Origin: Parcubacteria group bacterium Gr01-1014_8
GTDB taxonomy: Bacteria > Patescibacteriota > Minisyncoccia > Phycocordibacterales > UBA2100
Direction: 5' to 3'
NCBI GenBank assembly: GCA_007376385.1
Contig: VMGC01000002.1
Span: 32,001 to 96,000, forward strand
DNA: 64,000 bases
The notes under the pieces were generated by a model that was given only the letters and a program-made list of their open reading frames with translations, ran no database searches and was not told where the DNA came from. This document shows, piece after piece, positions 3,200 to 64,000 of the stretch. The number at the start of each line of letters is the position of its first letter. The first letter of the stretch is position 1. Made by a program: the position numbers and the translations under genes.

Positions 3200-3517
3200 A
3201 TGCAGATAGACGACTTGGATAGAACAGAGCTGGAACAGATATTGAAGCTTACGAAGGAGAATAATCGCATGCTGCATGCGATGAGGCGCAACGCGTGGCT
3301 GGGCGGTATCTTTAAGGTCTTGCTTTGGGCGGGACTTATCATTATCCCGTTCTGGCTGTATATGCAATATCTCGCGCCTGTTATGCAGAGCGCGATGGAC
3401 ACCATGGATCAGCTGCAGGGAACCGGTGCCAAAGCTCAAGCGCAATTCAGTGACCTCAATAACGCGATGCAGAAGCTTCAGGATCTGTACCCGCAATATT
3501 TTCAGAGTAAACAGTGA
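3200..3517 (+). CDS. Hypothetical membrane protein
   Basis: ORF with a central TM hairpin; starts 4 nt after the previous ORF. Confidence 0.45.
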   Translation: MQIDDLDRTELEQILKLTKENNRMLHAMRRNAWLGGIFKVLLWAGLIIIPFWLYMQYLAPVMQSAMDTMDQLQGTGAKAQAQFSDLNNAMQKLQDLYPQYFQSKQ

Positions 3518-3681
3518 AGCGCGAGCTTCACTTTTAAGAACCCACGGTTCTCAACGCTCGCTCTGCTCACTGCTCTCCTCCTCGGGAAAACTACAGTTTT
3601 CCCGACCCCTTTCGAACTCGCTTTACCTTATTCAAGGCTAAGAACATAGATGGCAAGCGAGGTAGATGGTATAGTGCCTCA

Positions 3682-3758: not shown

Positions 3759-3832
3759 GCCTGGATAGCTCAGGTAGTCAGAGCATTCCCCTGAAGAGGG
3801 AAGGGTGGTCAGTGCAAGTCTGACTCCAGGCA
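3759..3832 (+). tRNA. tRNA-Phe (anticodon GAA), with a non-canonical T-loop TGCAAGT
   Basis: Acceptor GCCTGGA/TCCAGGC, D-stem GCTC/GAGC, anticodon arm TTCCC-CTGAAGA-GGGAA, T-stem GTCAG/CTGAC; G at position 55 is unusual. Confidence 0.6.
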
Positions 3833-3836
3833 CAAT

Positions 3837-26044: not shown

Positions 26045-26503
26045 ATGAAGTCGATAATTTCGATCGTAGCAGTGTTGCTGATGGCAGGAGTCGCGTACAT
26101 TATATGGCCGCAGTTCGCGAATGCACCGCAAATAGATGATCCTAGCGCGACAGAACGGGTCTCGGAACAGAAGAATGTACCGGTGGATGAGCAATTTGCA
26201 ACACTTATTACGTACACAGATGGGGGGTATAGCCCGCAAACGGTTTCAATAAAAAAAGGTCAGACAGTCAGGTTCGTTAATAACGCAGAACGCCAGGATA
26301 CATGGCCTGCGTCCGCCATACATCCCACCCATTCGATCTATCCGCAAAAAACGGACAGCGATTGTCTAGGGAGTTCATTCGATCCATGCCACGGATTAAA
26401 GCCGGGAGAGTTCTGGGAGTTTACGTTCAATGAAGTCGGGGAGTGGGGTTTCCATGACCACTTGCATCCGTCGAAGTTCGGGAAGATCCTCGTTACTGAA
26501 TAG
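26045..26503 (+). CDS. Secreted cupredoxin-like small protein (possible copper-binding beta-sandwich)
   Basis: Signal/anchor MKSIISIVAVLLMAGVAYI, then beta-rich region with His/Cys/His/Met-type ligand candidates (HPTHSIYP, CHGLKPGEFWEF, HDHLHP). Confidence 0.4.
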   Translation: MKSIISIVAVLLMAGVAYIIWPQFANAPQIDDPSATERVSEQKNVPVDEQFATLITYTDGGYSPQTVSIKKGQTVRFVNNAERQDTWPASAIHPTHSIYPQKTDSDCLGSSFDPCHGLKPGEFWEFTFNEVGEWGFHDHLHPSKFGKILVTE

Positions 26504-59940: not shown

Positions 59941-61164
59941 TCAGACTGACTCAAAAATAGTGGCGGTTCCAAAACCTCTGACTTTGCCCGCTGACCTCAG
60001 CCACTCCTGTTTCTCAAATAATTGTTCAATTGGACCTAGGCAGACGATCTTTATGTGCTTATTGCTTGCGACTCTTTTTAACTTTGTTACCGTACCTGCT
60101 GCGGTTTTAGGTGTAAAAGGACTGAATAAATAAAATACATCGCCGTCGGAAATATCTTGGTCGAGAACATTTCCCGCTCGAAATTCAACGTTCGGAAGAC
60201 CCAATTTTTCTTTTGCTTTATTGCAGGCTTCAACACGTTCTCGTACCAATTCGATACCAACGAATTTCGCCTCGGTTATCAATGCCCCATATAGAGGGAT
60301 TCTTCCATGTCCCGAACCCAAGTCGTAGAATACTTGCCCTTTTTCGGGCTTCAATGTTCGCAAGAGATTTCGTATCATCTCGTAGTCCGTTCCTTGGTAC
60401 GGCCATCTTTCACCCTTGTGTTTTATTGCTACGTCAGAGCCAACGAGGTTGATGTCGTCCAGATATCCCGTAACTCCAAGCAATGCATCCATTTTTCGTT
60501 CGTCAATTTTTGCATTCCCCGCATGTATGGCGGCGATGTCGCCCTTGATAAATGCTCTTTCTCTATCTGGGGTAATTTTGTTAGAGGGCTGGTCCCTATT
60601 AGCGTCGCTTTTATTTGAAGTGTTAGAAGGCGTATCTTCGTCGAGAAGTATTCTGAAATGCCGCTGTTCGCCGTACGGGGATACGAAATCGTGCTTTTCC
60701 AAAATCCTGCTTCCATAATGCCTTTCAATGCTATCGGCATATCCGTTGGCTTTTAAGGCATCTCTCGAAAGAAATATGCAGCCGCACTTACGCAATCCGC
60801 TCTCAAGTTTTTCCATAAGCGGACCGATGAGTCCTTTCCCTTGATGCTTGGGTTTTATCATCGTCGTTGTGACGTATGCAGTCTTCTGCGTTTCATCTAC
60901 ATCAGCCCATGAAAAGCCGACGACTATTCCTCGTGCATCATAGAGAAGGGCGGTGACGACATTATCCTCTTTCATTTCTATGACGTTATTGCTTGAGAGG
61001 GGAAGTGTCTTTTGGTTTAGCTGTTCAATTTCAGCTAACTGAATGGCAAGTTCAGCCCAATTTGCGGTGCGTTTGTCTAAAATTTTGCTTGAGAATCCCG
61101 CAATTGCTTCCGAATTTCTTTCTGGCTTGGCGCGGGGCGTCTTGTTTGATCCCAGGTCGGTCAT
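59941..61164 (-). CDS. Fusion protein: N-terminal GNAT acetyltransferase plus C-terminal class I SAM-dependent methyltransferase
   Basis: HQGKGLIGPLMEKLE (GNAT motif A) and VFYDLGSGHGRIPLYGAL (methyltransferase motif I); start at the internal MTDLG. Confidence 0.6.
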   Translation of the reverse strand: MTDLGSNKTPRAKPERNSEAIAGFSSKILDKRTANWAELAIQLAEIEQLNQKTLPLSSNNVIEMKEDNVVTALLYDARGIVVGFSWADVDETQKTAYVTTTMIKPKHQGKGLIGPLMEKLESGLRKCGCIFLSRDALKANGYADSIERHYGSRILEKHDFVSPYGEQRHFRILLDEDTPSNTSNKSDANRDQPSNKITPDRERAFIKGDIAAIHAGNAKIDERKMDALLGVTGYLDDINLVGSDVAIKHKGERWPYQGTDYEMIRNLLRTLKPEKGQVFYDLGSGHGRIPLYGALITEAKFVGIELVRERVEACNKAKEKLGLPNVEFRAGNVLDQDISDGDVFYLFSPFTPKTAAGTVTKLKRVASNKHIKIVCLGPIEQLFEKQEWLRSAGKVRGFGTATIFESV

Positions 61165-61269
61165 GTGTTGAATTATACGCGATGGCGCGCGCCAGAGGTG
61201 GCCGGAAAGCAATACGTTACCGGAACGCTGATCGAAAACACCCTTGACGGGTGTTTTTCAAACTATCTG

Positions 61270-61364: not shown

Positions 61365-62012
61365 ATGGTACGCATCCTAGCAATACCGAGAACGAAATGG
61401 AACGGAATAATAGGTCAGTACAAATCAGGGCTTTCGATGCAACAAGTTGCCGACAAGAATGGCGTATCGATTGATGTTATTACTTACATACTTCGTAAGT
61501 CTAAAGTGCCGCGGCGTTCATTTATTGACGCAAATAGAATTGCGTTTGAATCAAAGAAACCCTCTTTTGCGCTACGCAATCAGAACTCGGATTCATCAAA
61601 GGAGTTAGATTTGATTGGAGCGATGCTCTATTGGGCAGAGGGATATAAGAGAAATACGGCTAGCGGAATAGATTTTGCGAATAGCGATCCTGATATGGCC
61701 TTATTATTCTGGCGATTCCTGAAACATCGTTACAAACTCGACCTCAAGAGGCTCTATTTCTCTGTTTATCACTATGACGATCAACACTTATCCGCTCTTG
61801 TGAAGTTTTGGAAGCATAAGTTGGGTATCTCTGAGGAACTATTTCGACACTCATATATGAAGGGAAATTCGAATCCGAATGCGCGCAAGTTGCCATACGG
61901 TGTTTTACACATTCGCTATATGGATAAAAAGCTTTTGAGAGACGTGCTAACTTTGATAGAATCGTATAAACTACGGTTCTGCGTCGGTGGCGGAGTGGTC
62001 AATCGCAATTGA
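61365..62012 (+). CDS. HTH protein with a C-terminal LAGLIDADG-like (homing-endonuclease-like) domain
   Basis: N-terminal LSMQQVADKNGVSIDVITYIL helix-turn-helix; LIGAMLYWAEGYK resembles a single LAGLIDADG motif; the 3-prime end overlaps the tRNA-Tyr 5-prime end. Confidence 0.45.
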   Translation: MVRILAIPRTKWNGIIGQYKSGLSMQQVADKNGVSIDVITYILRKSKVPRRSFIDANRIAFESKKPSFALRNQNSDSSKELDLIGAMLYWAEGYKRNTASGIDFANSDPDMALLFWRFLKHRYKLDLKRLYFSVYHYDDQHLSALVKFWKHKLGISEELFRHSYMKGNSNPNARKLPYGVLHIRYMDKKLLRDVLTLIESYKLRFCVGGGVVNRN

Positions 62013-62064
62013 CTGTAGATCAATCGCCCTTTGGGCTACGCAGGTTCGAATCCTGCCCGGCGCA
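61981..62064 (+). tRNA. tRNA-Tyr (anticodon GTA), type II
   Basis: GCGTCGG/CCGGCGC acceptor, anticodon arm ATTGA-CTGTAGA-TCAAT, long variable arm, T-loop TTCGAAT. Confidence 0.8.
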
Positions 62065-62115
62065 CAAGTAAGATGGTCAAATTGGGGAGCTTTTTCGCGT
62101 GCTACAATATTCCAG

Positions 62116-62499
62116 ATGAGAGCAGTGCGTTTTGCGCTCGCGTACCTAACTCCCGTTTCTTTAGCGCTTCTGCCGCTCGTTTCAAACGCTGCTTTGCCGG
62201 ATTCCATCGTTCCGTGTAAGGGGCTCGACTGCACAGTGTGCAGCTTGGCGACACTTGCTCAAAACTTGCTGAATGCGGGGATTTTCATGGCTATCTTCAT
62301 ATCCGCGCTTCTCTTTGCCTATGCAGGGTGGCTGTATCTCACCAACGAAGCTATCGGTCAGCAGCAGAAGGCAAAAGGCATGTTTCTGAATGTGGTAGTT
62401 GGACTCGTTCTCATTCTCGGCGCATGGCTCATCGTTGATACTTTGATGAAGGTTATGCTCGGAGGCAGCTACATGCCGTGGAATAGCGTTTGTTCATAG
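62116..62499 (+). CDS. Pilin-like paralog 6 (homolog of 44141..44488)
   Basis: Signal LPLVSNA|AL, helices FAYAGWLYLT and VVGLVLILGAWLIVD; parallels VYAGFLFV and ILILGAWVF in paralog 1. Confidence 0.55.
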   Translation: MRAVRFALAYLTPVSLALLPLVSNAALPDSIVPCKGLDCTVCSLATLAQNLLNAGIFMAIFISALLFAYAGWLYLTNEAIGQQQKAKGMFLNVVVGLVLILGAWLIVDTLMKVMLGGSYMPWNSVCS

Positions 62500-62608: not shown

Positions 62609-62658
62609 AACGGGGTTGACCTAGAGCCGCTATTTGGCTATAGTGCGCCCGAATCGAT

Positions 62659-62817
62659 ATGTCACAAGATCAACTCATAAAACTCGCGTGTTCGAAGTGC
62701 GCACGCATCAACTACTGGTCCCGCAAGAACAGAAAGCTTGTTACGCGCAAGATAGAAATGAAGAAGTACTGCAAGTGGTGTAAGGCGCACACCATGCATA
62801 AGGAATCTAAAAAGTAA
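62659..62817 (+). CDS. rpmG: 50S ribosomal protein L33 (52 aa, zinc-ribbon type)
   Basis: Hand-translated MSQDQLIKLACSKCARINYWSRKNRKLVTRKIEMKKYCKWCKAHTMHKESKK with CxxC...CxxC. Confidence 0.8.
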   Translation: MSQDQLIKLACSKCARINYWSRKNRKLVTRKIEMKKYCKWCKAHTMHKESKK

Positions 62818-62820
62818 GCC

Positions 62821-63142
62821 TTGCCCACTTGCAGTGAGAAGGGGCCGGGAAGCGGGAGCGACCAATCATTCTTAGCGGTACTCCGCTTTAGAATGATGAA
62901 GTACTCCTGTGGTGTTTCCCGTGGAGGAAGGCAGCGTGTGAGTTTTGGACGAGCATTGGAAAACCGTGGGCGACCAATTTTTCTTGCCGGTACTCCGGCT
63001 TAGAAAAATGGAGGTACCCTTGAGGTGTGACCAAGAAAATAACGAGGAACGAGTATATTTTCTGAAGTACTCTTGCGGTGTTTCCAAAGTTTTCTTGTGT
63101 TGCCGCAAGCATACGCCGCACAAAGAAGCGAAGAAATAGAAG
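62821..63142 (+). repeat. Two to three degenerate tandem repeats derived from the rpmG 3-prime half (GAAGTACTCCTGTGGTGTTTCC / GGAGGTACCCTTGAGGTGTGACC / GAAGTACTCTTGCGGTGTTTCC ... TGCCGCAAGCATACGCCGCACAAAGAAGCGAAGAAATAG)
   Basis: Nucleotide and peptide similarity to the rpmG tail (KKYCKWCKAHTMHKESKK versus KYSCGVS...CRKHTPHKEAKK). Confidence 0.55.
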
Positions 63143-63764: not shown

Positions 63765-63809
63765 TATTATATAACAGAAGTCTTACAACCATCAATTATA
63801 GTCTGATTA

Positions 63810-64000
63810 TGAAGTTAGTTGAGCATGAGCGCGCAATTTCGTTGCGCAAGCAAGGGCGTTCAATGAAGGAAATAGCAAACACTTTGTTTGTTGCAAAGAG
63901 TACAGTTTCGCTTTGGGTTCGAGATATTTCGTTGAGTAGACCTGCACGAAAACGCATACGTTTACTCTATACAAATGGACAGATCGCATCGCAAAAAGCC
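63810..64000 (+). CDS. HTH-domain protein, 3-prime partial (continues beyond the window); N-terminus paralogous to 61365..62012
   Basis: MKLVEHERAISLRKQGRSMKEIANTLFVAKSTVSLWVRD helix-turn-helix. Confidence 0.45.

Follow-up and report, generated by a model that had tools for sequence, protein, structure and literature searches.

Integrative elements enter the 3' halves of tRNA genes and restore the gene end, leaving an att duplication; these elements are several kb long. In fungal mitochondria there are free-standing homing-endonuclease genes and mobile introns accompanied by duplicated host-gene ends. The bridge RNA of IS110 and the omega RNA of IS200/IS605 are guide-bearing RNAs of mobile elements, while repeats of the REP/MITE type are small, multi-copy, hairpin-rich sequences located in intergenic regions after genes. 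Finally, group I introns are common in the tRNA genes of Patescibacteria (PMC13011429).

Here we analyse a stretch of 64,000 nt from Parcubacteria group bacterium Gr01-1014_8 (the window), in which rpmG, the gene for ribosomal protein L33, is followed by a repetitive, strongly folded region. We consider it likely that positions 62818-63139, to which the last 13 codons of rpmG should probably be added, form one copy of a small protein-less mobile element, common among Paceibacteria and in other Patescibacteria as well. Every copy that we inspected has the same order of parts: an intact gene end (copy 1), a spacer or an intrinsic terminator, a segment complementary to 12-25 nt of copy 1 (anti), a folded core, and a second version of the gene end (copy 2). 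The element measures 0.12-0.33 kb and encodes no protein.

Like the integrative elements of tRNA genes, the element repeats the 3' part of the gene directly, keeps the gene working with an end of its own, displaces the native fragment and has its crossover in the T-loop/T-stem. However, the present element is far smaller, has neither an ORF nor an integrase nearby, carries an inverted target copy and a conserved folded core, and has targets too diverse for one sequence-specific recombinase. As with the fungal mitochondrial endonuclease genes and introns, insertion is near the gene end, the replacement end is foreign and the differences are mostly synonymous; unlike in these systems, there is no ORF and the target is apparently chosen by nucleic-acid complementarity. 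Compared by description, not by homology, the element resembles bridge and omega RNAs in setting a structured scaffold beside a programmable segment that matches its own insertion site, but no recombinase or TnpB/IscB gene adjoins it, it has one guide rather than two loops, and it contains a long gene-end duplication. Being small, multi-copy, hairpin-rich and located after genes, it is like REP/MITE-type repeats; its flanks (anti and copy 2), however, are target-derived, and neither terminal inverted repeats nor a short fixed target duplication were seen. With group I introns (PMC13011429) it has in common the phylum, the kinds of host gene, a segment complementary to the upstream gene, the lack of an ORF and a patchy distribution. 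It differs from them in its core of 50-70 nt, which has no P3-P9 catalytic core and no match to Rfam Intron_gpI, in its location at the T-loop/T-stem or at the end of a protein gene instead of the anticodon loop, and in a host gene that is complete without splicing by virtue of the duplicate gene end: rpmG has an unbroken ORF, and ARAGORN and Rfam both find the upstream tRNAs complete.

Results

The rpmG locus and its neighbours

The L33 protein of the window has 121 homologues, found in Paceibacteria/Kaiserbacteria, and so assigns its source to this group; an exact-sequence look-up returned no record. A sigma-70-like promoter lies ahead of the gene at 62616-62644, and no intrinsic terminator was found 3' of rpmG on the plus strand of the window. 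The features that we assign to the locus are collected in Table 1.

Table 1. Features of the element downstream of rpmG and of a second core in the window
Feature	Position	Strand	Basis
rpmG (ribosomal protein L33, 52 aa), intact	62659-62817	+	Pfam PF00471, E 5.9e-18
Target site 'ab' in rpmG (codons Y37-C-K-W-C-K-A43), complementary to anti	62768-62786	+	Inverted repeat I7, 11 nt, 100% complementary; extends to AAGGC/GCCTT
anti, reverse complement of the target site, 18 nt, beginning 1 nt past the stop codon	62818-62835	+	Inverted repeat with 62768-62786
Unpaired AGGGG(C/U) strand, start of core	62840-62845	+	Invariant in 106 aligned copies (alignment A2)
P2 helix, 62846-62853 pairing with 62914-62921	62846-62921	+	Covariation, MFE fold
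Extension module A in P2 loop	62854-62913 (hairpin 62866-62896)	+	60-nt insert in covariance-model alignment
Unpaired UGGAGGAAGG strand	62922-62931	+	Invariant in alignment A2
Optional P3 region, variable hairpin; similar version in L023	62932-62956	+	Comparison of copies
P4 helix, 62957-62965 pairing with 63080-63086	62957-63087	+	Covariation
Extension module B in P4 loop	62966-63027 (hairpin 62978-63008)	+	Module covariation
Extension module C in P4 loop, in tandem with B	63028-63079 (hairpin AGAAAAUA..UAUUUUCU)	+	Module covariation
a*, altered upstream half of target copy (..TTTTCTTG)	63088-63097	+	Identity of copy 2 with copy 1 ends here
Copy 2, probable displaced rpmG 3' end (C-C-R-K-H-T-P-H-K-E-A-K-K-stop), partly decayed	63098-63139	+	blastn
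Second element core, full copy with P3 hairpin	3531-3614	-	Covariance model R1, 53.7 bits, E 3.5e-14

The surroundings of rpmG have several features of their own. The tRNA-Tyr/rpmG locus is bracketed by two paralogous ORFs, 61365-62012 and 63809-64000, in which a helix-turn-helix at the N-terminus is combined with the LAGLIDADG-like motif LYWAEGYK; the first of them overlaps the start of tRNA-Tyr (61981-62065). Between tRNA-Tyr and rpmG, ORF 62116-62499 gives a weak, below-cutoff match to a type IV secretion pilin (PF18895, E 1.8e-4), and such gene content is typical for Patescibacteria. On the minus strand, a 423-aa ORF (59941-61212) combines a GNAT acetyltransferase domain with a SAM methyltransferase domain.

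The second core in Table 1 sits between tRNA-Phe (3759-3833, plus strand) and the 3' end of ORF 3200-3517 (plus strand), and what its anti and copy 2 seem to match is an intergenic sequence of hairpin-like form rather than a tRNA. A further candidate at 26152-26252 was discarded, being a weak covariance-model match inside coding sequence.

Repeats downstream of rpmG

The original prediction was that the 320 nt after the L33 gene hold two to three degenerate tandem duplications of the rpmG 3' half, each with a hairpin that changes in a compensatory manner between copies and each followed by a segment similar to rpmG codons 33-52. The repeats are real. The members of a 52-nt direct repeat (62850-62901 and 62962-63013) are 77% identical, a 23-nt repeat is present in three copies (starting at 62897, 63010 and 63063), and neither pattern was matched in 100 shuffles, so that the similarity is significant against chance. 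The compensatory changes are borne out as well: the two hairpins differ by four base-pair changes, all fully compensatory, and in 15 copies of the module hairpin from many contigs 10 of the 13 pairs carry compensatory changes (0/500 shuffles). The region as a whole folds better than its shuffles (z -3.9 to -4.3).

The repeats are, however, nested modules and not tandem copies of rpmG. The rpmG-like piece that they share is only about 17 nt long (GAAGTACTCNTGNGGTG), and aligning it to rpmG requires a 1-nt gap that breaks the frame. The same 17-mer is the 3' flank of modules nested in three tRNA-linked elements and of modules that stand alone in L124 and L135, with a variant in L017; it is therefore part of the module and not a local duplication of rpmG. 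This flank is similar to rpmG codons 35-41 and shows the AAG-to-UUG change known from the a* of rpmG-linked copies, so that the module may descend from an element of that kind. Among the matches listed, the P4 loop is 3 nt long in 107 of 119 copies, compared with 113 nt in the window, and in about eight copies it holds a module of about 55 nt composed of GCGACCAAU, a hairpin and GAAGUACUCUUGUGGUG. Judged by these comparisons, the window repeats represent an optional hairpin module that is present three times within the P2 and P4 loops of a single element, and it is this nesting that makes the window copy unusually large.

The extension module is also found outside any recognisable core, with an outer closing helix of its own, at L017:1271-1327 (minus strand), L024:1832-1882, L124:~871 and L135:~7253 (minus strand). 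In this form it may represent a small element, or an RNA motif, in its own right.

One part of the predicted relationship to rpmG is genuine. The last segment of the region (ending in CRKHTPHKEAKK and a stop codon; copy 2 in Table 1) is a true homologue of rpmG 3' ends, and blastn aligns it with the final 43 nt of rpmG from many other genomes (84% at best, E 1e-6). An additional feature, absent from the original prediction, is the 18-nt inverted copy of rpmG codons 37-43 that directly follows the stop codon. Sequence comparison thus assigns an rpmG origin to only two pieces of the post-rpmG region, anti and copy 2. The suggestion of a pseudogenised member of a Zn-binding/Zn-free L33 pair fails: a second full ORF is absent, the 64-aa ORF at 62945-63139 scores 13.7 bits against PF00471 (cutoff 25) and does so over residues 53-63 only, and a 60-aa ORF has no Pfam match.

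A conserved core shared by many loci

We sampled 80 rpmG loci, one per species-level genome. Five of them (L004, L012, L014, L023 and L027) have a simpler version of the window arrangement, in which the stop codon is followed by the reverse complement of the C-K-W-C codons, then by GAGGGGGUCGGGGAAC-loop-GUUCCCCGUGGAGGAAGGAAUGGGAAAACCGUGGGUUUCCCAG, and then by a second rpmG 3' end running to its stop codon. At a further locus, the conserved sequence lies after tRNA-Trp and is flanked by the reverse complement of the 3' part of the tRNA and by a tRNA-3'-like copy. In total, 7 of the 80 related species-level genomes carry the element next to rpmG or tRNA-Trp, and its distribution among relatives is patchy. 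A scan for the core pattern yielded at least 120 stretches in Patescibacteria metagenome contigs and no copies in 2.9 million viral contigs.

We aligned 106 distinct cores among the matches listed (alignment A2). The core consists of two hairpins, P2 and P4, with the invariant UGGAGGAAGG strand between them and an invariant AGGGG(U) ahead; P3 is optional and variable, being present in about 40% of copies and in at least three sequence types. Pairing in P2 and P4 reaches 98.9% across the 106 cores. Doubly compensated cells number 98, compared with 25.8 in shuffles (0/500), and the slid-register controls for the two helices all collapse. The covariation is well illustrated by P4 pair 93:112, which is GC in 69 cores, UA in 18 and CG in 16. 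A covariance model, R1, built from this alignment has about 69 model positions, of a core with some 50-70 conserved nt, and it matches the window copy at 62836-62980 with 36 bits (E 5e-9) in spite of a 60-nt insert. The window copy has the core, the anti just 5' of it and an altered gene end just 3' of P4.

The invariant purine strands have no partner inside the core. The strand UGGAGGAAGG..UGGG (62922-62960 in the window) resembles GGAGGAAGGUGGGGA, a conserved stretch of 16S rRNA, and it is also Shine-Dalgarno-like; the Rfam SSU models gave no match. The consensus of a*, CUUGU, could pair with the P4 loop GUGGG, and no covariation is evident on inspection. A mini-hairpin motif, GCGAAGC or ACGAAGU (a C-GAA-G triloop), recurs in the spacer, in P3 and in the position of a*, where it takes the form of the replacement GAGAUAGCGAAGCG. 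It is located between the tRNA end and anti in many loci (for example L093, L112, L123, L173 and L194) and occurs in the P3 of many cores. The oligonucleotide d(GCGAAGC) is an unusually stable DNA mini-hairpin, and the recurrence of similar motifs might hint at a single-stranded DNA stage.

When the window region and seven related loci were searched against Rfam 15 at permissive thresholds (E<=1-10), only tRNAs were found, and the small self-cleaving ribozymes among the Rfam 15 families (HDV-like, hammerhead, twister, twister-sister, pistol and hatchet) gave no match. Nor did a literature search of incomplete coverage, made by topic and by core sequence strings, return a description. On a conservative reading, the core defines a well-supported new structured RNA family with more than 100 members. 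Taken with its flanks, it is apparently an undescribed family of small guide-bearing insertion elements.

Targets and layout

Among the matches listed, about 75 of 124 copies (~60%) have a same-strand tRNA ending 27-80 nt upstream, and many isotypes are represented. The element is also found at the 3' ends of rpmG and rplK, at the 5' end of rnhA, where the intact gene is the downstream copy, and, in antisense orientation, at the 5' end of a GT4 glycosyltransferase gene. The original prediction of a structured autoregulatory 3' region is thus right in that the region is strongly structured, and wrong in tying it to L33, since the same core accompanies tRNAs, rplK, GT4 and rnhA. Contigs with two copies also occur (L182, L123/L145 and L111/L156).

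In all copies linked to rpmG or to tRNAs there is an anti. Copy 2 starts where the target complementary to anti starts, and the change in a* lies a few base pairs from the core, at the point where identity with copy 1 breaks; in most rpmG-linked copies it converts AAA or AAG to TTG. Where the element is linked to a tRNA, copy 2 often has a truncated or decayed acceptor tail (four such loci are L091, L139, L151 and L193), as expected for a displaced relic. In many copies, such as L095, L109 and L166, an intrinsic terminator separates the gene end from anti. These terminators speak against obligatory co-transcription of the element with its target, and this counts against a mobile element of the kind that we propose.

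We looked for an enzyme within 2.5 kb of the copies by clustering ORFs, and found no transposase, integrase or other recombinase, reverse transcriptase or nuclease family enriched. The only ORFs that recur are LAGLIDADG-like, at five metagenome loci. They belong to the same family as the two paralogues that bracket the window locus, and a tie between these ORFs and element mobility is possible. As for an origin as an IS-derived MITE, the boundaries defined by L004 and L145 (see below) lie inside target-homologous sequence, and no terminal inverted repeats were noticed on inspection.

A locus of mixed content is L018:2660-3945, where rpmG with a spacer and anti like those of L129 is followed by a 1.2-kb insert, from which the core is absent, and then by tRNA-Trp. 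The insert has an uninformative 358-aa ORF on the opposite strand and no Rfam intron match. We considered it as an autonomous version of the element and dropped the idea, as the insert holds nothing else; the locus is either an element remnant or a second insertion into an element.

Pairing of anti with the two gene copies

Of the positions under anti at which the two gene copies disagree, 158 show the anti segment matching copy 1 and 7 show it matching copy 2; anti is therefore tied to the intact gene. Its pairing with copy 1 comprises 1431 Watson-Crick and 51 G.U pairs over 1651 positions, with 32 A.C combinations set against the 51 G.U; with copy 2 there are 69 G.U against 29 A.C (p 6.6e-5). 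Such a sequence bias points to selection on pairing of the plus strand, either as RNA or as single-stranded DNA. The preference for copy 1 weakens a helix between anti and copy 2 as the primary functional helix. In the predicted folds, an uninterrupted proximal anti/copy 2 helix of at least 8 bp is present in only 5 of 101 copies among the matches listed, although the geometry of this helix (P1) is parsed from minimum-free-energy folds and is noisy.

Two other candidates were rejected. Fold-back priming from the GCGAAGC-like spacer hairpin of tRNA copies does not fit the rpmG copies, in which target and anti are separated by 31-35 nt that have not been copied. A small ORF starting from AUG/UUG in P4 behind a Shine-Dalgarno-like GGAGG is discounted because P4 pairs 92:113 and 93:112 already fix the U and G, because L023 does not preserve the frame and a stop interrupts it in L027, and because the tRNA-linked copies would encode random peptides.

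Transfer of the unit between lineages

The two gene ends differ in a manner that is informative about their history. Over the 12 codons past the junction in nine rpmG-linked loci, 31 codons are identical, 67 differ synonymously and 10 nonsynonymously. Neutral decay of a duplicate made in place can therefore be set aside as the origin of copy 2; the codon differences fit gene ends that diverged while functional in different lineages. In the window itself, 1 of the 12 codons is identical, 6 differ synonymously and 5 nonsynonymously. At 7 of 9 loci, copy 2 is nearer than the 3' part of copy 1 to the rpmG ends of the closest element-free relatives (0.754 versus 0.720), so it looks native, as would a pushed-out original gene end. 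Copy 2 of the window (...C-R-K-H-T-P-H-K-E-A-K-K) is probably the native C-terminus of L33.

The clearest case is the pair L004 and L145, whose outer flanks are unrelated. In rpmG codons 1-36 the two loci differ at 25 of 109 sites (23%). Over the stretch that begins with TACTGC and takes in the rest of rpmG with its stop codon, the spacer, anti, the core and a*, they differ at only 9 of 183 sites, with a single difference in the first 67 nt, and in the remainder of copy 2 they differ again at 7 of 34 sites (Fisher p 6.6e-6 and 0.005 for the two contrasts). It follows that a unit of gene end, spacer, anti, core and a* has moved between lineages, with its boundaries at the target in both copies. 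As read from this pair of sequences, the unit moves horizontally, and on entering rpmG at codons C-K-W-C it pushes the native end of the gene aside. By analogy with L004 and L145, the last 13 rpmG codons in the window (about 62779-62817) were probably supplied by the element.

Several observations count against this interpretation. The clean transfer signal comes from the L004/L145 pair alone, other pairs being ambiguous. Residues specific to a lineage are often common to copy 1 and copy 2 (L088, L134, L148), and two-fold codons differ at 45 of 71 positions (63%), above the saturation ceiling (p 0.016, with loci that are not independent); neither point is explained by simple transfer from a distant donor. 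We also compared codon choice in L004, L023, L088, L129, L134, L145, L148 and L166 together with the window (62779-62817 versus 63098-63139). Copy 1 codons are biased towards A/T endings and copy 2 codons towards G/C endings (43 versus 14, p 1.5e-4), with GC3 of 0.50 and 0.74, respectively.

Discussion

Alternative explanations

The best surviving alternative, which we nevertheless regard as unlikely, is a small intron. Here anti would serve as an internal guide that keeps the end of exon 1 (..a) next to the start of exon 2 (the b of copy 2), and everything from the b of copy 1 to a* would be removed by a ribozyme in the core or by a host enzyme; the element's own gene-end copy would then be a fail-safe product in the absence of splicing, and mobility would come from reverse splicing or homing. 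The geometry is indeed like that of group I P1/P10, with copy 2 starting at the target start and the a* mismatch exactly beside the junction, the boundaries of the transferred unit are a|b and a*|b, and the excess of synonymous changes (67 versus 10) means that the coding capacity of rpmG copy 2 has been kept. The presence of group I introns in so many Patescibacteria tRNA genes (PMC13011429) is also in its favour. Nonetheless, the core has only about 50-70 conserved nt and matches neither Rfam Intron_gpI nor a ribozyme family, many copies have terminators within the would-be intron, the upstream gene is always complete without splicing, and in tRNA-linked copies such as L091, L139, L151 and L193 the decayed acceptor tail of copy 2 would leave a dead spliced product.

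It is rather improbable that the region is a resident cis-acting RNA, that is, a 3' processing, stability or termination module of highly expressed genes whose closing helix arose by in-place duplication. Most copies do lie on the same strand downstream of highly expressed genes, the conserved fold covaries, and in the window the element would be co-transcribed with rpmG, which has no intrinsic terminator of its own. Such a module would, however, hardly be antisense to its target (the GT4 class) or upstream of it (rnhA), nor patchy among close relatives (7/80). Its anti would be expected to follow its helix partner, copy 2, whereas it follows copy 1 (158 versus 7); the L004/L145 identity tract crosses the divergence of the hosts; and an in-place duplicate decaying neutrally would not yield 67 synonymous and 10 nonsynonymous differences.

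Finally, that we are dealing with tandem pseudogenised rpmG 3'-half duplications (L33 paralogues) or with an L33-specific autoregulatory structure is very improbable: the final 42 nt are indeed homologous to rpmG 3' ends and the 17-nt module flank resembles rpmG codons 35-41, but that resemblance needs a frame-breaking gap, the repeat units are a module that is also nested in tRNA-linked elements and present alone in unrelated contigs, the 64-aa ORF stays below the L33 threshold, and the core also follows tRNAs and other genes, hence is not L33-specific.

A possible mechanism

We therefore return to the protein-less mobile element. Its unit would consist of a replacement gene end, a spacer (often a terminator), anti, the folded core and a*, a short altered half of the target. 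The unit would enter a target gene at the site matched by anti, which is codons C38-K-W-C41 in rpmG and the T-loop/T-stem in tRNA genes. The gene would stay intact because the unit carries its own copy of the gene end, and the native end would be shifted downstream as copy 2 and then decay. Anti would act, as RNA or as single-stranded DNA, as the guide that chooses the insertion site, and may do so by aligning the a*|b junction of the element with the a|b junction of the target; a crossover at this point would give exactly the observed order. Strand exchange could be performed by a trans-acting enzyme or by the RNA itself. The chemistry may accordingly be RNA-catalysed, as in a very small intron that inserts by reverse splicing, or involve a folded single-stranded DNA, or depend on a guide-dependent protein. 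There is a precedent for the second option in CTX-phage integration, which acts on folded single-stranded DNA. One point counts against this scheme: the occupied allele retains a perfect target for its own anti, and guide-directed cleavage would consequently need self-protection.

More tentatively, the family may represent an undescribed miniature class of mobile element, in which a core of about 70 nt, directed by a programmable antisense guide, enters essential genes (tRNAs, L33, L11) at the site that the guide specifies and brings along a rescue gene end, the strand exchange being carried out either by the RNA itself, as a minimal splicing/reverse-splicing ribozyme, or by a guide-dependent enzyme. 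If this reading of a guided element of about 70 nt is true, the family would be a natural counterpart of engineered 'home-and-rescue' drives.

Implications

If our explanation is correct, Patescibacteria harbour an abundant mobile element without a protein gene of its own, which chooses its sites by base pairing and spares its host by carrying a spare gene end. It would add a new form of nucleic-acid-guided mobility to those of group I/II introns, bridge RNAs and omega RNAs, and the agent behind it could be a ribozyme of very small size, or else a new recombinase or nuclease whose specificity is programmed by a guide. Many cases of a puzzling "duplicated gene end" or "extra tRNA fragment" in Patescibacteria genomes would be accounted for as well; for annotation, short ORFs and pseudo-tRNA 3' fragments beside tRNA and ribosomal-protein genes would then be relics of the element.
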